Below, in pieces: positions 2,504 to 16,278 of a stretch of 16,278 nucleotides of DNA; position 1 is the first letter of the stretch; every line of letters starts with the position of its first letter. The notes beneath the pieces were generated by a model, which did no database searches, was not told where the DNA came from, and saw only the letters and a list, made by a program, of their open reading frames with translations. Source of the DNA: a virus (taxonomy: Duplodnaviria; Heunggongvirae; Uroviricota; Caudoviricetes); the IMG/VR virus record IMGVR_UViG_2563366911_000006. The stretch is one strand, 5' to 3'. The translations under genes were made by a program, and so were the position numbers.

Positions 2504-3304
2504 ATGAAATTTCCAAAAACGCCCGTACAGGGGCAGGGCTTCGTTCGGCCTGAAAACCAGAATCTGCAAAATTTTGGTGAAATTATCCCGGTTATTTCCG
2601 GCGTTATTGGCGGGCGTGAAACCAATATTGTTAGTGCCAGAGCGTTGCATAAGGCGTTAGGTGTAGGGCGCGTTTTCCGTTCGTGGATCAAGGGGCGCAT
2701 TGAAGAATACGGCTTCACGGAAGGCGTGGATTATGAGGTTGTTGAATATTTGAGCCGACCCGATCCGGTGAGCGCAAAATCTCGCCAGCAAACAGCTCTT
2801 GAGTACATCATCACCGTGAACATGGCAAAAGAACTGGCGATGGTCGAACACACCGAACAGGGCCGTGCCGTTCGTCAGTACTTCATCAAATGCGAGGAGG
2901 AGCTACACAAGGTAGCGCCAGTGCGTTCCGCAGCGTTACGCCGGGAACTGAAAGCCCGTATCACCGTTGCCAGCTACTTTAAGCCGATGTGTGCCGCGCT
3001 GGAGGCGTACCGGGCTGAACTGGGTAAAAACACGTTCCAGCACCACTACACCACGGAAGCCAATATGCTGGCGCGTATCGTGCTGGGTGGCATGACTGCA
3101 AAACAGTGGGCACAGGCGAACGGCATTACAGGCGAACCACGCGACCACATGAGCACGTTGCAGCTTGAGCACCTTTCTTACCTTGAGCAGAGCAATATCA
3201 CGCTGATTGAGTTAGGCCTGGACTACCACCAGCGGAAAGCTGAATTAATTCGTCTTTCGCAGCGTTGGTTAGCCCGTCGCATGGAGGAAAACAGCCATGT
3301 GTAA
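2504..3304 (+). CDS. Phage antirepressor-like protein (AntA/Rha-type N-terminal domain)
   Basis: 266 aa, AGGAG Shine-Dalgarno 7 nt upstream. N-terminal segment ARALHKALGVGRVFRSWIKGRIEEYGFTEGVDYEV resembles the AntA/Rha antirepressor DNA-binding domain. C-terminal half not assigned. Confidence 0.75.
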   Translation: MKFPKTPVQGQGFVRPENQNLQNFGEIIPVISGVIGGRETNIVSARALHKALGVGRVFRSWIKGRIEEYGFTEGVDYEVVEYLSRPDPVSAKSRQQTALEYIITVNMAKELAMVEHTEQGRAVRQYFIKCEEELHKVAPVRSAALRRELKARITVASYFKPMCAALEAYRAELGKNTFQHHYTTEANMLARIVLGGMTAKQWAQANGITGEPRDHMSTLQLEHLSYLEQSNITLIELGLDYHQRKAELIRLSQRWLARRMEENSHV

Positions 3305-3976
3305 CGCTCTGACCGTTACAAAAAGAGAAAGCGCCCCGTTGCCGGAGCGCCTTTGTGAACGAATAGCCTACTGCGCCATATTGCTTACTGTCTACGAGGC
3401 AGATTATAGCGTTGTGGTCGCACAGAGTGAAGGCGCTGATCACCGTTACTACAGCACGCCAGAAATGCAGAATATTTTGCTGCAAAATGTCGTTGGTCAC
3501 GCTGTCCGGAAAGCAAAAAATTTTGCTGGTGGCGCGACTGATGCGATTTTGTCAGGTCGCAAGGTGATGATCAATCTGATGTCTAATTTCGTTCTGGATA
3601 AAACAAAGGCGACCGCAGAGGGCCACCAGTGGGAAAGCTACACACTTGAACACATCGCCAACAATGCCAGATTTGCGGCTGGTGGGCAATGTGATCAGTG
3701 TGCTGGCTTGCTGGTGGGCTATTCCTGCTCTTTAACATTGCCATGCCGCGATGTTTTCCAGGTATGCGACCCCATTTTTGTGCGCCTGTACTCTTTAAGG
3801 AATTTCTCAAGGATAAACGCACAGGGCGCGAATCTGTCTGACTCATATTCGTACGCTATCTTTCTGCGCTGTCTTTTCCGTGCCGGTGATGGTGTATTGG
3901 TCGATTCTTTGTTGGTCATTCTGTGTACCTGTAAAGCAATGCGCCGGAGTTCCTCACACCACGGCGATGATAGTTA

Positions 3977-4282
3977 TTATTCTGATTCTTTGGCCTTGCG
4001 GCGCTGGAGTTCTTCACGTGCGACGGTGACGAGCTGCCCGATCTCCTCGACAGCTTTGACTCCGATTTTTTCCACCTGCGCCAGTGCATTGAGCGAAGAA
4101 ACCAGGGGATTTTCTCCGCTTCCTTCTGCCTGGCGGCGGGCGATCTCACCACGCATGGCGGTTACTATGAATCCGGCGTTGCTTTCGCCGTCCAGTTTTA
4201 CGGATTCCATGCCTTCAAAAGCATCATGTGGGATACGAATTGAAATCTGTTTTGATTTGTCGTTGATAGTGTTTTTTGCCAT
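3977..4282 (-). CDS. Putative ribbon-helix-helix DNA-binding regulator
   Basis: 101 aa from ATG at 4282 (minus strand) with AGGAGA Shine-Dalgarno. N-terminus KQISIRIPHDAFEGMESVKL...FIVTAMRGEIARRQ fits a beta-strand/helix/helix RHH fold. Divergent from the rightward operon. The opposite-strand frame here reads as Ser/Arg-rich junk. Confidence 0.7.
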   Translation of the reverse strand: MAKNTINDKSKQISIRIPHDAFEGMESVKLDGESNAGFIVTAMRGEIARRQAEGSGENPLVSSLNALAQVEKIGVKAVEEIGQLVTVAREELQRRKAKESE

Positions 4283-4469
4283 GTGCATTCTCCTAAACAA
4301 AAGATGTGATTCAGTATACACAAAAAAGAATCACAAAAAATACTTGACCTGTGATTCAGTTAAATTTAATTTAAATCACACCTCAGTAAGAGGATATAAA
4401 CGACAACGCCCCGAACTGTTTGCGGCAGTAGCGGGGCGTCTAACCAAACCGTTAAATGAGGTAACGATT
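4283..4469. promoter_or_regulatory. Divergent control region with operator-like repeats and a leader hairpin
   Basis: Two 11-bp direct repeats TGTGATTCAGT (4305-4315, 4350-4360), each with an inverted partner GAATCACA/AATCACA (4328-4335, 4374-4380). Candidate rightward promoter TTGACC (4345-4350) with a TAATTT-type -10. Candidate leftward -10 TATACT (minus strand, 4313-4318). GC hairpin ACGCCCCG-N18-CGGGGCGT (4406-4439) in the operon leader. Confidence 0.5.
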
Positions 4470-4835
4470 ATGGCTGGGGCACAGCATACCCAAACTCACC
4501 CTAAATTTATATACACCTTCCTTGCGGTGCACCGTGATTGCATGGCTGACGGTAAAAACACTGTTCATGTAGCCGCCGATACGCTGGTTGATGCCTGCGA
4601 GATGCTCAATGACATGGGCTATATCTCGGCAACATGGAAAGGGCGCGAAGAAAACACGTTGTTTATTCAGAAATGCGAAAACAATTTTATCTGGCGTTTT
4701 ATCGCCCTGAGTACGGCACAACCGCGCGTGATTCACATCGAGGCCACCAGCGAACAGGAAGCACGCCAGCAATCTCCTGATGGCTGCGTGATGGTATTCG
4801 CTGCCCGTATTCGCCAGGAGGTGGAGCATGTGTAA
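4470..4835 (+). CDS. Hypothetical satellite-operon protein (possibly Icd-like)
   Basis: 121 aa, GAGGT Shine-Dalgarno 8 nt upstream of ATG 4470. It is the only protein-like part of the 512-aa ORF-track frame. Family assignment is from memory and uncertain. Confidence 0.65.
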   Translation: MAGAQHTQTHPKFIYTFLAVHRDCMADGKNTVHVAADTLVDACEMLNDMGYISATWKGREENTLFIQKCENNFIWRFIALSTAQPRVIHIEATSEQEARQQSPDGCVMVFAARIRQEVEHV

Positions 4836-5052
4836 TGCAACATGGCCTGATGCAGCGGTAGACGCTATCAAAACGCTGATGGATTCACTTATTGAGATTT
4901 CTGCTATCGCTGGTGTGGCGCATAAACACGCAGCCAGAGAATCAGAATGCATCTCCCATTATTTAGCATTTGTGCAGCTGAAAGCCGATCAGGCACTGGA
5001 TAAGGCCGGAAAAATTATCATGGCTGATGTACAGGAGGTGCACCATGCATAA
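4828..5052 (+). CDS. Hypothetical small protein
   Basis: 74 aa. Start overlaps upstream stop (ATGTGTAA), consistent with translational coupling. Confidence 0.5.
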   Translation: MCNATWPDAAVDAIKTLMDSLIEISAIAGVAHKHAARESECISHYLAFVQLKADQALDKAGKIIMADVQEVHHA

Positions 5053-5833: not shown

Positions 5834-6124
5834 ATGAAAAGGAAAAATTCTGGCTTTACTGCCAGCGGTCTCTCTCGGCCTGAAATCAGACACGGAGATA
5901 TTTACCGCGACACCAGACGTGGGGGACGAGTGGTTATTCGTCACGTTACGCCAGGCAATATCACCTACCGCCGTGAGGCTTACGAATATGACTGCGTAAT
6001 GCCGCGCCGTCAGTTTGAGCGTGATTTTATTCTGGTGGAAAACAAACAACAGGCAGTGGCGAGACGTGCAGCCACGAATATTAAAAAAATCCGGGCAATG
6101 TTGGTTGCGGGAGGTAAGAAGTGA
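5834..6124 (+). CDS. Hypothetical small basic protein
   Basis: 96 aa, starts 4 nt after the previous stop. Its stop overlaps the GTG start of the primase (GTGA). Confidence 0.6.
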   Translation: MKRKNSGFTASGLSRPEIRHGDIYRDTRRGGRVVIRHVTPGNITYRREAYEYDCVMPRRQFERDFILVENKQQAVARRAATNIKKIRAMLVAGGKK

Positions 6125-7926
6125 AAAACGCACCGAATTTAAAATATCAGCCGAAGGATAAATTCACCGAGGTAATCATTTTTGCCGGGACGGATGCTTA
6201 CGCCCATGCTCAACACTGGATTGAAAGCGAAGGACGAAAACACGGCGATAACGTGCCTCCTGTTTACCTGGGGCCAAAGCAACTGGCAGACCTGGCGAAT
6301 ATCCGCATTGTCGACGATGAACGCCGCTTTGCGCGTGTCTATCTCGCGGGGGAGATAGAGCCAATCCAGATCAATGCTATTGCTGAAAAGCTGGCGCTGG
6401 CTGGTGTACAGGACGCGAAATTATACAAAGGTATCACCGACCGGGAGCCGGAAAACTGGCGCGACTACCTGCAACGGATCCGCGAACAGGCAGAGAGTGG
6501 GGAAGTTTCAGCGATGAAATTAGCCACAAAAAATATTGACCTATCTAGGCCAGCACTAAATCAGATGGGAGCCAGCCAGAGAGGGGAAGTGTTACTTGAA
6601 TATTATGGAAGAGCACTGGCTATAAATGATGATTCTGATGTAGTTCACCATTACAACGGAATTGTCTGGGTGCCTGTATCTGATAAGGAACTCCAGCGGT
6701 CTATGGCGAAGATTTTTATTGATGCTGGAATCAGTTATTCGCAAAACGCCATTAAATTTGCCGTAGACACAATGAAATTGAGCCTGCCTGTTATGGGCGG
6801 GGCAGACAGGAATCTTATTGGATTCAGTAACGGGGTATTTGATACCCGGACGGGAAATTTTCGGGAGCATAACAAAAATGACTGGTTGTTAAATGCCAGT
6901 GAATTACCGTTCAGCCCACCAGCAGAGGGGGAAACGCTGGCAACACATGCGCCGAATTTCTGGAAGTGGCTGCGTCGTTCGGTGGCAGATAATGATCGTA
7001 AAGCTGATCGCGTACTGGCGGCATTATTCATGGTGCTGGCGAACCGGTACGACTGGCAGTTATTCCTTGAGGTAACAGGCCCAGGCGGAAGCGGTAAAAG
7101 TGTGATGGCTGAGATTTGTACCATGCTGGCGGGTAAGGCAAACACAGTATCGGCAAGCATGAAGGCTCTGGAAGACGCAAGGGAACGCGCGTTAGTAGTT
7201 GGCTTTTCGCTGATTATCATGCCGGATATGACTCGCTACGCTGGCGATGGTGCAGGAATTAAGGCAATTACTGGCGGCGACAAGGTGGCAATTGATCCGA
7301 AACATAAAGCCCCCTACTCCACACGTATTCCGGCAGTAGTGCTTGCGGTAAACAATAACGCCATGTCATTCAGTGACCGAAGCGGGGGGATCTCGCGTCG
7401 TAGGGTGATATTTAATTTCTCTGAGGTCGTACCGGAGAACGAACGCGATCCCATGCTGGCGGAAAAGATAGAAGGCGAACTGGCGGTAGTGATTCGCCAT
7501 TTGCTAACACGATTTACCGACCAGGACGAAGCTAAAAGACTACTTTATGAGCAGCAAAAATCAGAAGAAGCGCTGTTGATAAAGCGCGAAGGTGATTCAC
7601 TGGTGGACTTTTGCGGCTATCTGATGTCGTTGGTTAAATGTGAAGGAATGATGGTGGGCAATGCGGAAATAGTGCCATTTAGCCCGAGGCGATACCTGTA
7701 TCATGCTTATTTAGCCTATATGTCAGCGCATGGCCTGGGAAAACCAGTATCACTGACACGCTTTGGTACTGATATGCCAGGAGCTATGGCGGAATACGGA
7801 AAGGAGTATAAGCGGGCTAAATGCACTAAAGGCCCGGATAAAGGGCGAGTGATAACAAATGTTCTGTTAGATGATGATGCTGATGGCTGGTTGCCAGCAG
7901 CTACAGGGATTAACGACAGAACATAA
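6121..7926 (+). CDS. Replication primase/helicase, P4 alpha-type C-terminal family (P-loop NTPase)
   Basis: 601 aa, GTG start with GGAGG Shine-Dalgarno. Walker A motif TGPGGSGKS near aa 316 (about nt 7066-7092). Overall resemblance to the P4-family primase C-terminal/helicase region. Followed directly by iterons. Confidence 0.88.
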   Translation: MKNAPNLKYQPKDKFTEVIIFAGTDAYAHAQHWIESEGRKHGDNVPPVYLGPKQLADLANIRIVDDERRFARVYLAGEIEPIQINAIAEKLALAGVQDAKLYKGITDREPENWRDYLQRIREQAESGEVSAMKLATKNIDLSRPALNQMGASQRGEVLLEYYGRALAINDDSDVVHHYNGIVWVPVSDKELQRSMAKIFIDAGISYSQNAIKFAVDTMKLSLPVMGGADRNLIGFSNGVFDTRTGNFREHNKNDWLLNASELPFSPPAEGETLATHAPNFWKWLRRSVADNDRKADRVLAALFMVLANRYDWQLFLEVTGPGGSGKSVMAEICTMLAGKANTVSASMKALEDARERALVVGFSLIIMPDMTRYAGDGAGIKAITGGDKVAIDPKHKAPYSTRIPAVVLAVNNNAMSFSDRSGGISRRRVIFNFSEVVPENERDPMLAEKIEGELAVVIRHLLTRFTDQDEAKRLLYEQQKSEEALLIKREGDSLVDFCGYLMSLVKCEGMMVGNAEIVPFSPRRYLYHAYLAYMSAHGLGKPVSLTRFGTDMPGAMAEYGKEYKRAKCTKGPDKGRVITNVLLDDDADGWLPAATGINDRT

Positions 7927-8310: not shown

Positions 8311-8356
8311 CTGATGAATCCCCTAATGATTTTGGTAAAAATCATTAAGTTAAGGT

Positions 8357-8425
8357 GGATACACATCTTGTCATATGATCAAATGGTTTCGCGAAAAATC
8401 AATAATCAGACAACAAGATGTGCGA
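8357..8425 (-). ncRNA. IS10 RNA-OUT antisense RNA (position inferred)
   Basis: Placed by offset from the IS10 outside end using textbook IS10 organisation. Imperfect inverted repeat CATCTTGTC (8364-8372) / GACAACAAGATG (8409-8420) fits the RNA-OUT stem overlapping the transposase start. Confidence 0.45.
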
Positions 8426-9626
8426 ACTCGATATTTTACACGACTCTCTTTACCAATTCTGCCCCGAATTACACTTAAAACGACTCAACAGCTTAACGTT
8501 GGCTTGCCACGCATTACTTGACTGTAAAACTCTCACTCTTACCGAACTTGGCCGTAACCTGCCAACCAAAGCGAGAACAAAACATAACATCAAACGAATC
8601 GACCGATTGTTAGGTAATCGTCACCTCCACAAAGAGCGACTCGCTGTATACCGTTGGCATGCTAGCTTTATCTGTTCGGGCAATACGATGCCCATTGTAC
8701 TTGTTGACTGGTCTGATATTCGTGAGCAAAAACGACTTATGGTATTGCGAGCTTCAGTCGCACTACACGGTCGTTCTGTTACTCTTTATGAGAAAGCGTT
8801 CCCGCTTTCAGAGCAATGTTCAAAGAAAGCTCATGACCAATTTCTAGCCGACCTTGCGAGCATTCTACCGAGTAACACCACACCGCTCATTGTCAGTGAT
8901 GCTGGCTTTAAAGTGCCATGGTATAAATCCGTTGAGAAGCTGGGTTGGTACTGGTTAAGTCGAGTAAGAGGAAAAGTACAATATGCAGACCTAGGAGCGG
9001 AAAACTGGAAACCTATCAGCAACTTACATGATATGTCATCTAGTCACTCAAAGACTTTAGGCTATAAGAGGCTGACTAAAAGCAATCCAATCTCATGCCA
9101 AATTCTATTGTATAAATCTCGCTCTAAAGGCCGAAAAAATCAGCGCTCGACACGGACTCATTGTCACCACCCGTCACCTAAAATCTACTCAGCGTCGGCA
9201 AAGGAGCCATGGATTCTAGCAACTAACTTACCTGTTGAAATTCGAACACCCAAACAACTTGTTAATATCTATTCGAAGCGAATGCAGATTGAAGAAACCT
9301 TCCGAGACTTGAAAAGTCCTGCCTACGGACTAGGCCTACGCCATAGCCGAACGAGCAGCTCAGAGCGTTTTGATATCATGCTGCTAATCGCCCTGATGCT
9401 TCAACTAACATGTTGGCTTGCGGGCGTTCATGCTCAGAAACAAGGTTGGGACAAGCACTTCCAGGCTAACACAGTCAGAAATCGAAACGTACTCTCAACA
9501 GTTCGCTTAGGCATGGAAGTTTTGCGGCATTCTGGCTACACAATAACAAGGGAAGACTCACTCGTGGCTGCAACCCTGCTTACTCAAAATCTATTCACAC
9601 ATGGTTACGTTTTGGGGAAATTATGA
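8418..9626 (+). CDS. IS10 transposase
   Basis: 402-aa ORF MCELDILHDSLYQFCPELHLKRLNSLTLACHALLDCKTLTLTELGRNLPTKARTKHNIKRIDRLLGN... recognised as the IS10/Tn10 transposase. Full length, intact frame. Confidence 0.95.
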   Translation: MCELDILHDSLYQFCPELHLKRLNSLTLACHALLDCKTLTLTELGRNLPTKARTKHNIKRIDRLLGNRHLHKERLAVYRWHASFICSGNTMPIVLVDWSDIREQKRLMVLRASVALHGRSVTLYEKAFPLSEQCSKKAHDQFLADLASILPSNTTPLIVSDAGFKVPWYKSVEKLGWYWLSRVRGKVQYADLGAENWKPISNLHDMSSSHSKTLGYKRLTKSNPISCQILLYKSRSKGRKNQRSTRTHCHHPSPKIYSASAKEPWILATNLPVEIRTPKQLVNIYSKRMQIEETFRDLKSPAYGLGLRHSRTSSSERFDIMLLIALMLQLTCWLAGVHAQKQGWDKHFQANTVRNRNVLSTVRLGMEVLRHSGYTITREDSLVAATLLTQNLFTHGYVLGKL

Positions 9627-9648: not shown

Positions 9649-10178
9649 TGACTAAGCTGACCATTAACAGAAAACCAAAAGGTATTTACGGCACGCCGCA
9701 GAAAACGACGCAGGCGGCACAGGAGCAGGATAAAACCACATCGGCGCATAAAGTGATGCCCGGTAACCAGAAAGCGCAGCAGAAGCCTACAGGGGCGACA
9801 CCGTGGCGGCATATGACCAAACGCCAGCGCAAAAACCGCAGGCGCGTTAACCGCCTCACTGAGTTGTGGCCTGACTTATTCAGCCGGGAAGCACTGAAGC
9901 CGCTTAAGGTGGGGATATTCGACGACCTGATGCAGGATCTCGCCGCCAGGGGGCTGGCATTCGGGCCAGGGGCATTGCGTGCGACGCTGGCATCTTATGC
10001 GCAGTGTCCGCGCTATTACCGCGCCTTAATGGCTGGTGGGGTACGCTACGACCTGAAAGGCCAGCCGTGCGGCGAGGTGACACCACAGGAACAACAGGAC
10101 GCAGAAACGCGGCTGGTGGCGCTGAATGAGAAGCGCAAACGCCAGTGCCGGGCAGCAAAGGAGACAATAGGCGCATGA
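9648..10178 (+). CDS. ProQ/FinO-domain protein (RNA chaperone-like)
   Basis: 176 aa, GC-rich. Segment PLKVGIFDDLMQDL...LRATLASYAQCPRYYRALMAGGVRYDLKGQPCGEVTPQEQ closely parallels the conserved ProQ/FinO core (PLKIGIF..DL...R.DL.G.PCGE). IS10 lies immediately upstream. Confidence 0.72.
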   Translation: MTKLTINRKPKGIYGTPQKTTQAAQEQDKTTSAHKVMPGNQKAQQKPTGATPWRHMTKRQRKNRRRVNRLTELWPDLFSREALKPLKVGIFDDLMQDLAARGLAFGPGALRATLASYAQCPRYYRALMAGGVRYDLKGQPCGEVTPQEQQDAETRLVALNEKRKRQCRAAKETIGA

Positions 10179-10462
10179 TTCACGACAGCAAAGCGGAAGC
10201 ACTGGAAGCGCGTGGTCTGTACCGGAGAGCGGCGGCGCGGTGGGCTGAGGTCATCATGCTGGCGAATGATGACAAGGCACGGGAACAGGCGGCAAAACGT
10301 CGCGCGGAATGTATCCACAAGGCAGCACGCCCACCAGCAAGGCAGGATAATTTCGGGGAGATGCGCGAAACCATCAGCCGGGCACATGCCGGGATGGGAT
10401 TACATCAGCCCAATGGTGAGGCATTCAGGAAATACCAAAAAAAGAACAATTGTAGTCAGTAA
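10175..10462 (+). CDS. PerC-family-like small transcriptional regulator
   Basis: 95 aa from ATG 10175, overlapping the upstream stop (ATGA). N-terminal AEALEARGLYRRAAARWAEV recalls the PerC family. Assignment from memory, moderate certainty. Confidence 0.6.
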   Translation: MIHDSKAEALEARGLYRRAAARWAEVIMLANDDKAREQAAKRRAECIHKAARPPARQDNFGEMRETISRAHAGMGLHQPNGEAFRKYQKKNNCSQ

Positions 10463-10596: not shown

Positions 10597-11739
10597 ATGA
10601 ATAAAACTTTAATTGCAACATTAGTCGGTATAGTAATGTTAACCGGATGTGGGCCAGAAGAGTTAACTCCAGAACAGAAACAGGAAGTAGCTGCTCTTAA
10701 AGCTGAACTGTCGCAAACGGAAGGTGAAATATCAGCAGCTAAGGAAGTTGACCAGCAGTTTTCTGGTGGGTTGATAAAAAATCTGACAACAGCAAGACTG
10801 GAAATATTAGGAACTAATAAAGCGCTTTTGGAACAGCGTATTAATGCTATTGAATCAGGTGCCAAAATTGATGTTGTTGTATCTGGAGTAAAACCTGATC
10901 CTGAGCTTGCGGCTTCAATTAAAACTGAAATTGACAGCTTAGATGCAAAAATCAACGAAGCCAAAGCTGATGCTCGTCAGTATAGTGGTGGTCTGATAAA
11001 GGTACTAAAATTATCTACTGTTGCCACTGAAGAGCAGACCATGGCAATGTTGCAGCAAAAGTACCTCACAGCCAAGTATGGCCTCGCTGAAGTTAAGCTG
11101 GCATCAGTACAAGCTAATGACGCAAAAAACAGTACTGAAACGGAAGTAACAGCCAAAAATTCCCAAGAGCAACTTCCTTTACTCCCGCCAGCGGATGGTC
11201 CGTTTGGCTTAGAAGCCGGTCTTACACAGAAAAACATCGAAGATATGATCGGTGCTAAGCTCAAGCCACTACCAGACAGTGTGAATCTGTATACTTCTGA
11301 TAAATTACCGAAGCAAAACGCAGATTTTGAAATGTATGGTTTGCTGATCTCCCCGAAAGCTGGTTTATGTCAAATACGGGCTTTAGGAAAAAATATTGAT
11401 ACTGATAGCTATGGATTGGCTCTTAAATCCAAGTTTGAAGAATTGAGTAATTCTTTAAGTTCTCTGTATGGAAAGGCTGATACTACAGACTTTTTGCTGG
11501 CTGGTTCAATTTGGAAAGATCCTCAGGACTGGATGAGGGGGCTAAACAAAAAAGAACGCTTCTTATCTGCCACATGGAAGGGAACAAAAGAAATACCATT
11601 AAAAAACAATATTGATACTATATCTATTGAGGCCAGAGCGAACAATTCCACTCAGGGATATGTCTATCTGCAGTACTCATTTACAAATGACGAAATTTGT
11701 CAGGCAGAAATTGAAGGGGCGAAAAAAAGTTCCCTTTAA
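10597..11739 (+). CDS. Lipoprotein with internal repeats, function unknown
   Basis: 380 aa. Signal peptide with lipobox LTGC (Cys18). Two copies of a Q(F/Y)SGGLIK motif about 70 aa apart in a coiled-coil-like N-terminal half. AT-rich. Followed by a strong terminator. Confidence 0.85.
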   Translation: MNKTLIATLVGIVMLTGCGPEELTPEQKQEVAALKAELSQTEGEISAAKEVDQQFSGGLIKNLTTARLEILGTNKALLEQRINAIESGAKIDVVVSGVKPDPELAASIKTEIDSLDAKINEAKADARQYSGGLIKVLKLSTVATEEQTMAMLQQKYLTAKYGLAEVKLASVQANDAKNSTETEVTAKNSQEQLPLLPPADGPFGLEAGLTQKNIEDMIGAKLKPLPDSVNLYTSDKLPKQNADFEMYGLLISPKAGLCQIRALGKNIDTDSYGLALKSKFEELSNSLSSLYGKADTTDFLLAGSIWKDPQDWMRGLNKKERFLSATWKGTKEIPLKNNIDTISIEARANNSTQGYVYLQYSFTNDEICQAEIEGAKKSSL

Positions 11740-11751
11740 ACAATCCGTGCA

Positions 11752-11778
11752 AAGCCCCTTAGTAAGGGGCTTTTATAT
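11752..11778 (+). terminator. Rho-independent terminator
   Basis: Perfect 9-bp stem AAGCCCCTT / AAGGGGCTT with 3-nt loop, followed by TTATATATT. Confidence 0.7.
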
Positions 11779-11803
11779 ATTAATGTTCAACGTGGGGGAT
11801 TAG

Positions 11804-12127
11804 ATGAAAGATAATCTAGCAAAACTAATTGAAAATACTTTAAAAGATATTCTATTAGCTAATGCTGCTCTAACATTCATTTTTGCAATACCAATGGCTA
11901 TTATCAGTAGGCATGGGATGGGCATCACAATCTGGTTTATAACTGTGCTCATTGCACCTGCTCTGTGTGCAGTAGGTGCATGGCTTGTATCTCGAACATC
12001 CGGCCATGCTGAGGAGTTCTTTCATCGTCGGTGGGCTAAGCGAATTTATGTTTTTTATACTCTTGCGGCTGCCGAGTTTTTGCTTGTGTACTCAATCGCG
12101 CAAATAATGAAAAATCTGATGAAATAA
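11804..12127 (+). CDS. Small integral membrane protein (about 3 TM helices)
   Basis: 107 aa, GGGGGA Shine-Dalgarno. Three hydrophobic stretches of about 20 aa (LANAALTFIFAIPMAIIS, ITIWFITVLIAPALCAVGAWLV, IYVFYTLAAAEFLLVYSIAQIM). AT-rich. Confidence 0.7.
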   Translation: MKDNLAKLIENTLKDILLANAALTFIFAIPMAIISRHGMGITIWFITVLIAPALCAVGAWLVSRTSGHAEEFFHRRWAKRIYVFYTLAAAEFLLVYSIAQIMKNLMK

Positions 12128-12395
12128 TTAACAAGTTATTATCATGGAGCTTGTGGCTGTTAACCTGCAGTGAGGCGACAATCGTGTATTTATAAAAACT
12201 TCCCCTTTTCACTCCCCGCTGCTTCTTCTGCTATTGCCTTTATGTTTGCATCTGCCATACCTTTGCAGAAAAATCAGAGCATTCAGTGCCGAAGGTTGGT
12301 TTATTGATGCTTTTCGTTTCATTTATTGCAATTGTCTCTGGTATCATTTCAATTTGTGCAATAATTGCAATTATTGTCATTCAGAAGGGATCATC

Positions 12396-12563
12396 ATGAA
12401 AAATCACGGAGTAAAGCCAGTTTTACTTTCCCGGAGGCAGATCGAAGCCCTGCAACGCATCCAGGACGAAGAGCGTCAGAAATCTGTGCTTGGTGTGGCA
12501 CCGTCGATTCATGTTATCGCTCGGCAACTGATGGATAAGGCACTTAAAGAGGTGAGACTGTGA
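12396..12563 (+). CDS. Small hypothetical protein (possible DNA-binding regulator or antitoxin-like)
   Basis: 55 aa from ATG 12396 with AAGGGA Shine-Dalgarno 5 nt upstream. Upstream region carries ATTGCAAT-type palindromic repeats. The ORF-track start (12234) is probably too far upstream. Confidence 0.55.
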   Translation: MKNHGVKPVLLSRRQIEALQRIQDEERQKSVLGVAPSIHVIARQLMDKALKEVRL

Positions 12564-12832
12564 AATTAAATATCAGAGTGGATAAACGCCAGCTATGGCA
12601 GAAAAAAGAGAACAGCGAGGCATTCAGGGCGTTGCTGGTGGAAAATCTTCAGCATCGGTTCAGTGGAGAGTTGCCTGATGCTCTAGGGAAGAAACTGGAA
12701 TCCCTGACGGTGGAAATTGGCGATTATGGCTTTGTTGATGTTGAAAGCACGACTGCCAACACAGAAATCGTAAAACAGGTCGTCAATGATGTAATGAAAA
12801 CCACGCTTAGCCAGCCATCCTGGCGCAACTGA
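12560..12832 (+). CDS. Small acidic hypothetical protein
   Basis: 90 aa. GTG start overlapping the upstream stop (GTGA), suggesting a coupled two-gene unit. Followed by a hairpin terminator. Confidence 0.55.
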   Translation: MKLNIRVDKRQLWQKKENSEAFRALLVENLQHRFSGELPDALGKKLESLTVEIGDYGFVDVESTTANTEIVKQVVNDVMKTTLSQPSWRN

Positions 12833-12838
12833 ATCAGT

Positions 12839-12862
12839 AAGGGGCGGTTATTGCCCCTTTCC
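12839..12862 (+). terminator. Putative rho-independent terminator
   Basis: Stem AAGGGGC / GCCCCTT with 7-nt loop followed by TTCCTCC. U-tract is weak. Confidence 0.5.
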
Positions 12863-12931
12863 TCCATACCCACAACGCATTCCCTTTCCGCATGAAATTA
12901 TTTTTTATCGTATATGCATGAGGTGAGCTAC

Positions 12932-13459
12932 ATGTTGATGAGTAAAGCCGAATACGCCAAATACAAAGGCGTAAGCCGCCAGACAGTTTACGACTGGCTC
13001 GAGAAAGGCGAAGTGGTCATGTCCGGTAAAAAAATTGATGTGGAGGCGACAGAGCAGCGGAACAGCCCACCGGCACAAGGGAAAGACACCGTTTCTGAAA
13101 TGTGGCCAGAAAGAACGCTGGAAATGACGTGGGGCGAGTTCTGGAAAGCAGTTAAGGCCAGAGACGGTAAAATTCCTTCGCCAGTAACGGACGATGACAT
13201 ACAGCAGCGTGTGCTGTATGCAGCCGGGGAATTAGGCTGGGAAGTGCACTTTCTTGATGATGGTGCTATCTGCCTTGAGGATGATGAAGGGCAGCATTAC
13301 TTTGAAAAATACAATTTGCGAGGTAATGCCAGGCTGGCAATTCGTATGCTGCGTTGCGAACTCTGCTATGTTGCAGGTGATTATCCCGATGAACTGGAAT
13401 CATGGAGTGAAGCCGGGCTAAACGCCCTGGCTGAATGGGAAAAATCAGACCATCAATGA
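12932..13459 (+). CDS. N-terminal HTH protein (possible small-terminase-like or packaging-redirection-like DNA-binding protein)
   Basis: 175 aa from ATG 12932 with GAGGTGA Shine-Dalgarno. N-terminus MSKAEYAKYKGVSRQTVYDWLEKGEV is an HTH of the type found at the N-terminus of small terminase / Nu1-like proteins. Acidic C-terminal domain. A repeat array lies immediately downstream. Confidence 0.65.
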   Translation: MLMSKAEYAKYKGVSRQTVYDWLEKGEVVMSGKKIDVEATEQRNSPPAQGKDTVSEMWPERTLEMTWGEFWKAVKARDGKIPSPVTDDDIQQRVLYAAGELGWEVHFLDDGAICLEDDEGQHYFEKYNLRGNARLAIRMLRCELCYVAGDYPDELESWSEAGLNALAEWEKSDHQ

Positions 13460-14289: not shown

Positions 14290-16278
14290 GTGTTCCTAAT
14301 ATCTGACCTTAGCGACTTGCGTGCACTTTCGGAATCCGCAGAGCTAGAGTTCAAGCTAGCTCAAGGGAAAGACGGACAAGGTAAATTACCTGATGATTTC
14401 TGGCCAACCTATAGTGCTATGGCAAACTGCCGTGGTGGGTATGTGGTTTTAGGTATTAGAGAGAAAAAAGGGGAATTTTCCGTTGCGGGTATCTCAGATA
14501 TAAATACCGTTAAAAAGCAGCTTTTCGACCTCGTGAGCAACAAGAAAAAAGTTAACGTTAATCTTCTTACCAATAACTCTGTCCAAACAGTATCCTTACA
14601 GGGAAAGGATATTCTTGTCATTGAAATACCAATCGCACGACGAGAACAGAAACCTGTTTATTTGAATAATCAACCCATGTCAGAAACATGGTTTCGTATG
14701 CACGACGGTGATCATCGTTGTTCAGAAGAACAAGTTCGTCGCATGATGGCCGAACAGGTTGAAGAAAGCCGCGACAACCGTATCGTACAAAACTTCGACA
14801 TGAACGATATTAACCTAGAAAGCTTGTTGGCTTACAGAAATCTACTATCTGCTTCAAACCCGACACATCCAGCTCTCGAACTAGATAACTTTGCTTTCCT
14901 ACGAAGTATTGGGGGATATAGAAAAGACCGGCAAACAGGTTTGGAAGGCATGACCTTAGCTGGCATTCTCATGTTTGGAACATGGGAAGCGATACAAGAT
15001 GTAGCCCCAAATTATTTTGTGGATTACCAAGAACGCCCTGAAGCAAGAACTGAAAGAAGATGGGTAGATAGACTATGTCCCGATGGGACTTGGTCAGGTA
15101 ACGTGTTTGACTTTTACAGACGAACCTATCGAAAACTAATTGCTGACTTAAAAGTCCCTTTTGAGCTTAAAGAAGGTATCCGACAGGACGATACTCAGAT
15201 ACACACAGCATTGCGTGAAGCGCTGGTAAATACCTTAGTTCATGCCGATTATACTGGACGAATCTCCATCATGGTTGTGAAACGACCAGATCTATTTGGC
15301 TTCCGTAATCCAGGTTTGATGCGCGTGCCACCAGAACAAGCAATCAAAGGATATGAAAGCGATTGTCGAAACCGACTGATGCATCAAATGTTTTTAATTA
15401 TTGGTGCTGGTGAACGATCAGGCTCAGGGATCCCTAAAATATTTAGTGGCTGGAAATGGGCTAACTGGCGTATGCCAAGGCTATATGAAAAAACAGAACC
15501 AGAACAAACACTTTTGGAGCTATCTATTGGCAACCTCGTATCAGAAGAAATTGCCAATCTTCTCCATACAAAATTTGGCGACAAAGTAGACCATCTCAGT
15601 GAGCTTGAGCGCAGTATTGTTATAACTGCAGCCGTAGAAAAGTGGATTGACCATGAACGGGCTTGTCAACTAACTAGCCTTCACTCTCGTGAGGTAACTT
15701 TAGCCTTACCCCGCCTTGTAAGCGGCGGATTCTTAGTCCCTCATGGTGAGAAGAGGAATAAATCATATACATTACCGGGGCAGGATCTTCCATCTCCAGA
15801 GGAAGTTTTTGGTGTAAATCCGTTATCAACAGACAACTCATTCGCAAACGAAGCTCAAATCATCACGGATAGCGATAATTTGATCACGGATAACGAAGAA
15901 TTGATCACGGATAACGAAAAAGAACGAGATGCTTTAGGTCGTTTTATAACCGAGAAACTACCTTTTCCTTATGTGGATAACCTTGAGTGCCTTTCACCAA
16001 CCTTAAGGCAACGGTTAGAAGACATATCTGCATTAGCCAGAGAAAAGAAACGACTTTCCAACGAAACCATGGACGAAATCATACTTAAGCTTTGCTCAGG
16101 CCATTATATGCCGCTTAGTGTTATTGCAAAGTTAATGGCCCGAACACCACAGAACCTACGAGAAAAACAGCTCGTTCCATTAGTAAGATCCGGAAAAATA
16201 AGACTGGCATTTCCTCATGCGAGAAGACACAAACGACAGGGATATATTTCTTGTGAACAAGTACAAGTTAACAACTAA
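14290..16278 (+). CDS. Schlafen/AlbA_2-domain protein with GHKL-like ATPase-type region (COG2865-like) and extended C-terminus
   Basis: 662 aa, GTG start with GGAGG upstream. N-terminal SESAELEFK signature; LAGILMFG segment; LREALVNTLVHADY...FRNPG...ERSGSGIPKIF matching the HATPase_c_4-like core of COG2865 proteins; C-terminal HTH-like segments. Family call from memory of motifs. Ends exactly at the window end. Confidence 0.8.
   Translation: MFLISDLSDLRALSESAELEFKLAQGKDGQGKLPDDFWPTYSAMANCRGGYVVLGIREKKGEFSVAGISDINTVKKQLFDLVSNKKKVNVNLLTNNSVQTVSLQGKDILVIEIPIARREQKPVYLNNQPMSETWFRMHDGDHRCSEEQVRRMMAEQVEESRDNRIVQNFDMNDINLESLLAYRNLLSASNPTHPALELDNFAFLRSIGGYRKDRQTGLEGMTLAGILMFGTWEAIQDVAPNYFVDYQERPEARTERRWVDRLCPDGTWSGNVFDFYRRTYRKLIADLKVPFELKEGIRQDDTQIHTALREALVNTLVHADYTGRISIMVVKRPDLFGFRNPGLMRVPPEQAIKGYESDCRNRLMHQMFLIIGAGERSGSGIPKIFSGWKWANWRMPRLYEKTEPEQTLLELSIGNLVSEEIANLLHTKFGDKVDHLSELERSIVITAAVEKWIDHERACQLTSLHSREVTLALPRLVSGGFLVPHGEKRNKSYTLPGQDLPSPEEVFGVNPLSTDNSFANEAQIITDSDNLITDNEELITDNEKERDALGRFITEKLPFPYVDNLECLSPTLRQRLEDISALAREKKRLSNETMDEIILKLCSGHYMPLSVIAKLMARTPQNLREKQLVPLVRSGKIRLAFPHARRHKRQGYISCEQVQVNN

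Follow-up and report, generated by a model that had tools for sequence, protein, structure and literature searches.

The gene pair and its setting

The stretch of DNA analyzed here (16,278 nucleotides, hereinafter the window; record IMGVR_UViG_2563366911_000006) is a phage satellite, i.e. a phage-inducible chromosomal island (PICI), of the EcCIMP1 type. Our subject is a pair of small overlapping genes in its 3' part, ORF1 and ORF2, together with the leader that precedes them and a third gene, ORF3, that follows. ORF1 (12396-12563, + strand) begins with ATG and codes for a basic protein of 55 aa, predicted to be a stand-alone ribbon-helix-helix (RHH) protein, which is the constant first member of a cassette found across related satellites. 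ORF2 (12560-12832, + strand) begins with GTG and codes for a near-neutral α/β protein of 90 aa with a DinI-like predicted fold; it is coupled to ORF1 through the shared tetranucleotide GTGA. In RefSeq both carry the label hypothetical protein.

Both genes lie where the original prediction, made from the sequence of the window alone, had placed them, and both are under purifying selection: between the E. coli sequences and Serratia or Pantoea-like copies, pN (the nonsynonymous proportion) is 0.24-0.32 as against a pS (the synonymous proportion) of 0.72-0.83, with the synonymous sites near saturation in this comparison. In ORF3 pN is likewise far below pS. The start/stop overlap of ORF1 and ORF2 is kept despite sequence change, appearing as GTGA, ATGA or TAATG, and ORF1 is preceded by a Shine-Dalgarno sequence (SD), AAGGG (12385-12389, + strand), with all relatives having a strong SD at an equal distance from the ATG. 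Since pN is so far below pS, the overlap survives in altered sequence and an SD is present at all loci, ORF1, ORF2 and ORF3 are real genes, and the first two form a constrained pair. The 90-aa product had been described as acidic; this does not hold, as its pI is 6.6 (13 D+E versus 13 K+R), the acidic protein of the block being that of ORF3 (pI 4.7) and the basic one that of ORF1 (pI 10.5).

Searches with the single sequences of ORF1 and ORF2 against Pfam, PHROGs, NCBIfam, PADLOC and PDB recovered no match, profile searches likewise gave no valid one, and tblastn found no match to ORF1, ORF2 or ORF3 in 50,697 phage genomes.

A family of predicted ribbon-helix-helix proteins

A word-seeded homology search recovered homologues of ORF1 in 29 clusters, all from Enterobacterales, and an exhaustive hidden Markov model scan of 1.84 billion representatives yielded just 58 relatives, almost all of 50-90 aa. 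The AlphaFold2 model of ORF1 (predicted local distance difference test score, pLDDT, of 92.4) has an extended segment at residues 6-12 followed by helices at 13-29 and 38-54, i.e. a strand-helix-helix topology in about 45 residues, and it superposes on solved RHH domains, with the N-terminal domain of TraM as the best structural match. The RHH superfamily has a G-x-S/T/N motif at the start of helix 2 that contacts the DNA phosphates. In the ORF1 family S30, G33 and P36 are nearly invariant and are followed by S/T37 just before helix 2, residues compatible with this motif but spaced differently. Because helix 2 ends at residue 54 of 55 and no segment follows it, ORF1 appears to be a stand-alone RHH domain. 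Not one of 41 aligned family members matches a Pfam family of any kind, the ORF1 profile has no sequence match in PDB, and searches of PHROG, NCBIfam and PADLOC were also without an ORF1 match. Thus, going by its predicted fold, ORF1 is a member of the RHH superfamily that lies outside every curated family.

A two-unit operator conserved in the leader

Our leader alignment comprises the 140 nt upstream of ORF1 at 24 loci (designated by L numbers) from more than 12 genera, and it displays a common plan: usually a terminator of the preceding gene, then two 17-bp units, a -10 element and the SD. The unit, RTTTCA-N5-TGCAAT, is a 17-bp pseudo-palindrome with half-site centres about 11 bp apart, i.e. 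about one helical turn, and the two units are offset by 30 bp. In the window, the distal unit is GTTTCATTTATTGCAAT (12316-12332, + strand), with the half-sites RTTTCA and TGCAAT, its position across genera being -77 to -85 from the ATG; the proximal unit is ATTTCAATTTGTGCAAT (12346-12362, + strand), 30 bp from the distal one, which lies at -48 to -56 in the 24 loci and abuts the -10 element of the relatives. The two units form a direct pair in E. coli, Pantoea, Erwinia and Rosenbergiella, and an inverted pair in EcCIMP1, Serratia, Leclercia and Rahnella. This operator, as we term it, is present upstream of ORF1 in every locus examined.

The unit is strongly concentrated in these leaders: written as TTTCA[CTA]-N4-6-GCAA[TC], it has 20 matches in 3.6 kb of leader sequence versus 5 in 452 kb elsewhere, an approximately 500-fold enrichment with the count elsewhere at about chance level. 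In a reverse search of viral contigs with the proximal unit fused to TATAAT, 31 matches were obtained; seven of these also had the distal unit and each was then followed by a gene of the ORF1 family at E <= 1e-26, while the other 24 were isolated chance matches in AT-rich coding DNA. A second, divergent paralogue of ORF1 in Providencia has an operator unit of its own just upstream. The association of operator and ORF1 is thus obligate and fixed in position, and the distribution of the unit is that of a single target. Diverged E. coli elements start to align exactly at the operator, their leader conservation being limited to the last ~90 nt (from ~12307), and in 34 genomes similarity ends inside ORF1.

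In the relatives the -10 element reads TATAAT, TACAAT or CATAAT and comes directly after the proximal GCAAT, with the SD about 26 nt further on. The window differs at this point: the family -10 position reads AATTGC, giving a third TGCAAT half-site (TGCAAT/ATTGCA, 12364-12371) within a perfect 18-bp palindrome, CAATAATTG|CAATTATTG (12359-12376, without strand), which is specific to this E. coli variant and, in comparison with ETEC1732 (L029) and AH01 (L030), sits where relatives have their -10. Candidate -10 elements in the window leader are TGcAATAAT (12357-12365) and TATTGT (12372-12377).

The original prediction had drawn attention to repeated ATTGCAAT palindromes around a TATCAT -10-like element in an AT-rich region of 269 bp. 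The palindromes are indeed clustered in the leader, where they form part of the two-unit operator: both exact copies in the 16.3 kb of the window are found there (12325 and 12364), along with a one-mismatch copy at 12346. Their count across the window is at chance level, with 12 found at one mismatch versus 15.6 expected. ATTGCAAT is simply the TGCAAT half-site overlapped with its own complement, and what is non-random about it is the clustering and, above all, the conservation across genera. The TATCAT (12342-12347) has to be reassigned to the flank of the proximal unit, the family -10 lying some 25 nt further downstream, and the AT-richness of the upstream gap (268 nt, GC ~0.39) does not set it apart, its neighbours being at least as AT-rich.

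Further elements are seen in some leaders. LexA-type boxes, CTGT-N8-ACAG (e.g. AACTGTTGTTTTATACAGTT), occur between the -10 and the SD in 4 of the 24, about 90-fold enriched over the rest of the loci, at ~31 nt before the ORF1 ATG in EcCIMP1 (L028) and at -27, -24 and -25 in L005, L016 and L018, respectively. Most other leaders have a LexA-like element with a 9-nt spacing (CTGTATATTTATCAG), of which that in C. freundii (L026) is the reverse complement; in the window leader such a box is absent. Many leaders from outside E. coli carry, immediately before the distal unit, the element TTCGATCGAAACGATCAAAT (variant TTCGATCCTCACCATAAAAT), found at about -100 to -85 from the ATG in L002, L004, L011, L014, L018, L022 and L023, with variants in L008-L010, L012, L015 and L019. 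It is absent from the window leader and might be bound by a second factor, for instance AlpA or IHF. A search of the leader against Rfam found no known RNA, a snoRNA match at E 0.6 being noise.

Exchangeable genes downstream of ORF1

The gene after ORF1 nearly always overlaps it by 1 or 4 nt, but its identity varies by lineage. Besides ORF2, it may be a 107-109-aa protein followed by a tape-measure protein of 850-1245 aa, a baseplate hub (phrog_196), a lytic tail protein of 600 aa that has an SLT domain, or an internal virion protein of the T7 gp14 family. At the E. coli ETEC1732 locus, genes for NUDIX, DUF2213 and lytic transglycosylase proteins stand behind ORF1, and in C. freundii the order continues from ORF2 to a gene for a tail assembly chaperone, one for a lambda-type tape measure and one that is tail-I-like. 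In EcCIMP1 itself the ORF1 homologue (hhalign 99.6%, 56% identity) heads genes for a DUF2824 protein, a 225-aa protein, a DNA ejection protein and a lytic transglycosylase, which are homologues of genes 055-058 of the helper phage Kapi1 at 83, 57, 26 and 24% identity. In all, at least six unrelated genes are found in second place, coupled to ORF1, and the cassette was never found outside one fixed slot of one satellite family. Because the coupled genes differ between lineages while ORF1 and the operator stay, we conclude that the latter constitute a constant cassette placed before a swappable module, which usually matches the helper.

Modules of delivery proteins were noted at L002, L011, L013, L014, L016, L018 and L021-L023 (~10.2-14 kb), at L010, L012 and L020, at L017 and L019, and additionally at L026 (10.3-14.8 kb) and in EcCIMP1 (12598-17766; P22-type gp14/7/20/16-like). 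The Providencia element (L024) contains two ORF1-family genes, at 4660-4907 and 9828-10273: a divergent 66-aa paralogue with its operator unit heads a module of a 181-aa protein and a tape measure, which is closed by a 58-aa ORF1 copy paired with ORF2. Other products of this element include an antiterminator-Q-like protein and one of the Arc family. Two candidate relationships among the coupled genes were rejected, namely that of the 108-aa second gene of the tape-measure-type elements to ORF2 and that of a DUF5681 protein to ORF3.

ORF2, the hairpin and ORF3

The ORF2 family is narrower than that of ORF1, being found in E. coli, Citrobacter, Serratia and Providencia at 49-99% identity, and in every context examined it comes directly after an ORF1 gene with a 4-nt overlap. 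Its predicted β-α-β-β-α fold superposes on DinI as the best fold match. Its nearest known counterparts are DinI and the DinI-like or Tum proteins of phages. The DinI protein is a modulator of the SOS response that binds the RecA filament, its strongly acidic C-terminal helix acting as a DNA mimic that contacts RecA. ORF2 departs from DinI in being near-neutral and without such a helix, as its helix at 68-83 has only two acidic residues, and its conserved loop HRF-GELPD-GKKLE has no DinI counterpart. At the sequence level, homology to DinI is not significant: none of 15 ORF2-family members matches the DinI family PF06183 even at E <= 10, and hhalign comparison of the ORF2 family gave 0.6% with a single DinI sequence and 25.7% (E 7e-4, over the first 36 residues, in the correct register) with a seven-member DinI profile built from phage genes. 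Thus, a DinI-like fold is likely for ORF2 on the strength of the model, and a role as a RecA modulator would be speculative. Matches of ORF2 to LRR kinases are spurious, arising from a short GELP-like repeat. Tai proteins are mostly phage-encoded, as exemplified by phi80 orf63 (PMC11364771); the lack of tblastn matches among the phage genomes searched would argue against ORF2 or ORF3 being of this kind.

ORF2 is followed by a GC-rich hairpin (12839-12859, + strand) with an 8-bp stem and a 5-nt loop (-14 kcal/mol for the 55-nt stretch folded, z -1.8). The original prediction had taken it to be the terminator of the pair; the hairpin exists, but lacks a U-tract and is not recognized in a terminator scan. 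Serratia has a hairpin of different sequence at the same place, also without a tail. The hairpin could act in weak termination or in RNA stability, and ORF3 may be co-transcribed with ORF1 and ORF2.

ORF3 (12932-13459, + strand) codes for an acidic protein of 175 aa with a predicted N-terminal HTH (helix-turn-helix) domain of the TerS/excisionase type. The longest open frame starts at the ATG at 12914 (181 aa), while conservation in Serratia and RefSeq both give the start at 12932 (MLMSKA). Serratia and other E. coli strains have ORF3 conserved alongside ORF1 and ORF2, the Serratia counterpart being 58% identical. Residues 5-48 match phrog_57 (terminase small subunit) at 2e-6, and the scores for Pfam HTH_17 and TIGR01764 are below the cut-offs. 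A relationship to Rpp at the sequence level was rejected: neither the single sequence nor a three-member profile matched the chains of 6HLK and 6HN7, and no similarity was found to RppC, to the lambda TerS structures or to any other solved structure.

Regulatory interpretation and alternatives

The reading that we favor, and hold to be probable though by no means secure, is that the pair forms the head of an autoregulated, RHH-led operon that serves helper exploitation after replication in EcCIMP1-type PICIs. ORF1 would bind as dimers of dimers to the units at 12316-12332 and 12346-12362, and in this variant also to the third TGCAAT at 12364-12371, these units flanking or overlapping the promoter core. 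By binding there it would repress its own operon in a feedback loop of the kind known for CopG, omega, Arc and Mnt, limiting the translationally coupled downstream genes while the island is silent and buffering their expression when it replicates to high copy. Because the proximal unit abuts the -10, repression rather than activation is the simplest sign of control to propose. In this scheme ORF2 would probably act as a modulator that binds protein, and ORF3 might serve in packaging or in the recognition of DNA; the binding of the operator by ORF1, the direction of control and the functions of ORF2 and ORF3 are all predictions. The autoregulation-like layout seen in the original prediction is consistent with the RHH fold of ORF1 and with a conserved two-unit operator, next to a -10, that always precedes it.

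Several points weigh against this reading. None of 41 aligned members of the ORF1 family matches an RHH family of Pfam, the fold comes from a monomer prediction, and DNA binding by ORF1 is deduced from it. The predicted β-strand, VKPVLLS, is unusually hydrophobic and holds a proline, with K7 as its only obvious base-contacting residue; its variants in the family (VTPVLLT, VAPILLS, VKVVLLS, VKTVLIK) show no covariation with the operator sequence, so that the predicted link between ORF1 and the operator derives from their co-occurrence. The family -10 is degenerate in this variant and no sigma-70 consensus promoter was called in the window, making the promoter a putative one. The ORF2 fold comes from a model of pLDDT 78 with weak profile-level support (hhalign 26%). 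Finally, AlpA or a helper factor could bind the leader instead of ORF1 or in addition to it.

This last point can be extended to a different account of the leader, which we regard as unlikely: another regulator (AlpA, PerC, LexA or a helper factor) would bind the operator and switch the operon on at helper induction, while ORF1 would have its role elsewhere, for instance at promoters of the host or the helper, or would assist the downstream proteins as a co-factor. AlpA has been shown experimentally to be the master regulator of lytic gene expression in PICIs (PMC11773190), and the leaders lack a conserved -35, as is typical of activator-dependent promoters; the poverty of the ORF1 strand in base-contacting residues points the same way. 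Since a bona fide LexA-type box stands between the -10 and the SD of four leaders, extra regulators clearly do act here. Other observations oppose this account. AlpA activates its own promoter, yet upstream of alpA there is no enrichment of the unit, and binding of AlpA to it there was rejected; the unit is absent from Kapi1, which likewise led us to reject the targeting of this helper by ORF1 through the unit; and elements of Serratia and C. freundii retain the operator without having PerC. Moreover, the operator goes with ORF1 even at the second paralogue of Providencia and in the reverse search.

It could also be supposed that ORF1 and the units mark a site of DNA processing or packaging initiation, comparable to TraM at oriT or TerS and Rpp at cos or pac, with ORF1, perhaps together with ORF3, labelling the satellite genome for the helper terminase. 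The best structural match of ORF1, the N-terminal domain of TraM, binds repeated sites at oriT, ORF3 has the predicted TerS-type HTH (phrog_57, above), and the block is located where PICIs keep their packaging genes (PMC6739421, PMC11773190). We consider this improbable: at every locus the units stand at a fixed distance from the -10 and SD, which is what a promoter-operator would show, most loci with ORF1 and the operator have no ORF3, and the same cassette precedes modules that match helpers of very different packaging strategies (P22-like, T7-like, lambda-like siphoviruses and myoviruses), as a helper-specific packaging site would not.

A type II toxin-antitoxin system, the layout that the original prediction had in mind, with ORF1 as RHH antitoxin and autorepressor and ORF2 as toxin, is very improbable despite the matching gene size, order and overlap, because ORF1 has no residues beyond the RHH domain to neutralize a toxin, ORF2 matches no toxin family of Pfam, NCBIfam, PADLOC or PHROGs and its predicted fold resembles DinI and no known toxin, the coupling of ORF1 is equally tight where its partner is a baseplate hub, a lytic tail protein, a 108-aa protein with a tape measure, DUF2824 or NUDIX, and the cassette keeps to one slot of one satellite family instead of moving as an addiction module does. 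The regulatory half of that earlier suggestion thus agrees with what was observed, and the toxin half is disfavoured.

Comparison with known systems

As part of an autoregulated operon, ORF1 would resemble CopG (copG-repB of pMV158), omega (pSM19035), Arc and Mnt (P22 immI), which are likewise bare RHH domains of 45-55 aa encoded by the first gene of what would be their own operon, with an operator of repeated short half-sites about one helical turn apart that overlaps or abuts the promoter core; the direct or inverted arrangement of the units is paralleled by omega. Unlike these proteins, to which it has no sequence relationship, ORF1 has a hydrophobic, proline-containing strand, and the genes that it would control are hijack modules of satellites, where those of the known proteins serve replication, partition or immunity. 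The RHH antitoxins of type II systems (ParD, RelB, CcdA, MazE7) share with it the RHH first product and the palindromic operator, and differ in the neutralizing tail, the toxin-like second product, the fixed second gene and the mobility of the locus.

The window shares int, alpA, antA, icd, DUF4222, primase and perC with EcCIMP1, where the ORF1 homologue also stands behind a leader of like plan. The P22-type gp14/7/20/16-like genes that EcCIMP1 has in common with Kapi1 follow its cassette, whereas that of the window is followed by ORF2 and ORF3, genes without homologues in phages. LexA controls operon I of the Staphylococcus aureus pathogenicity islands (SaPIs), and the LexA-type boxes of the four related leaders, though not the window leader, recall this arrangement. 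As in other PICI packaging operons (Rpp in EcCICFT073, PMC6739421), the block lies downstream of the replication genes, and ORF3 with its predicted TerS-like winged HTH is a candidate analogue of Rpp. An RHH head gene such as ORF1 sets the block apart from the Rpp and SaPI packaging operons, none being described for them in the portions of the literature available to us.

The satellite and its other genes

The window starts inside the integrase gene (1-1254) and continues with alpA (AlpA domain in 2113-2424), antA, an icd-like gene, DUF4222, a D5-type primase gene (6121-7926), IS10, proQ (ProQ/FinO), perC, the ORF1-ORF2 block and defence cargo; the integrase, alpA and primase genes are co-oriented, and no capsid or terminase family was found among its proteins. 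About 165 of 5426 complete E. coli genomes (~3%) have the region, in the chromosome, and at the megablast level no phage genome matched. In the closest E. coli record (L001) the island lies at tRNA-Thr between proA and yagU, beside a MarR/Vat island. The same site is used by EcCIMP1, and it is in these two that it is seen, the junction of the window falling outside the sequence. EcCIMP1 is a PICI of E. coli MP1 for which helper-dependent excision, replication and transfer with the podovirus Kapi1 have been demonstrated by experiment (Pick, Stadel and Raivio 2025; PMC11773190), and its authors noted the similarity to Kapi1 genes, with no mention of the small gene or of an operator or leader (PMC11773190). 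We found no published description of the ORF1-operator cassette.

Upstream of the block, a strong intrinsic terminator with a 10-bp stem and a T-run (11751-11773, + strand) follows a gene for a 380-aa lipoprotein-like protein and sets an upstream boundary to the transcription units that come before the cassette; equivalent terminators stand directly before the operator in L002-L004, L011, L014, L018, L022, L023 and EcCIMP1. The terminator separates the 380-aa gene (weak lipoprotein signal-peptide matches) from one for a 107-aa membrane protein, which together occupy 10597-12127 between perC and the operator. Since both are absent from E. coli AH01 and ETEC1732, where perC lies directly before the leader, they are an accessory insertion.

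IS10 (8356-9626) lies between the primase gene and proQ and comprises a 402-aa DDE transposase (8418-9626) and the antisense RNA RNA-OUT (Rfam RF00240, 98.8 bits, minus strand, 8356-8425). The icd-like gene is a 512-aa ORF (3297-4835), the last ~45 residues of which match the Icd-like cell-division-inhibitor domain (NF033153, 1.6e-21), with no family match for the long N-terminal part; elsewhere the gene is shorter (64 aa in EcCIMP1, a 51-codon fragment in L001 and 171 aa in ETEC1732). PICIs have a 3' defence hot spot, and the cargo at the end of the window fits this: a gene that runs off the end (14290-16278) codes for a Schlafen/AlbA_2 domain and a HATPase_c_4 region, with a match also to the PHROG 'DNA helicase' family and weak PADLOC matches to pAgo-associated proteins. 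In sister elements the 3' cargo consists of GapS1 (L001), SIR2 (AH01) or an AAA protein with an S8 peptidase (L005).

Implications

Two hypothetical proteins found in about 3% of complete E. coli genomes can now be viewed as parts of a testable regulatory cassette, led by a new and unannotated RHH family with a defined operator. This cassette provides a handle on the least understood part of the EcCIMP1-type PICIs, which present satellite classifiers call doubtful ("Type C"). We tentatively extend the proposal, at less than even confidence, to a universal "socket" of these widespread enterobacterial satellites, into which exchangeable modules copying the DNA-delivery machinery of the helper are placed, such that the satellites would supply their own injection proteins rather than remodel capsids or redirect the terminase. 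The DinI-like ORF2 and the TerS-like ORF3 would then be a further module without a phage counterpart, acting perhaps on RecA and the SOS response or on packaging.

For specialists, the interest lies in the wider pattern, in which a widespread satellite family has a conserved RHH-operator socket before modules that can be exchanged and that copy the DNA-delivery proteins of helpers. As the cassette marks the start of the helper-matched swappable module, it could serve to find such modules and to predict the type of helper from the satellite sequence, and it could help to test whether satellites replace the injection proteins of their helpers.

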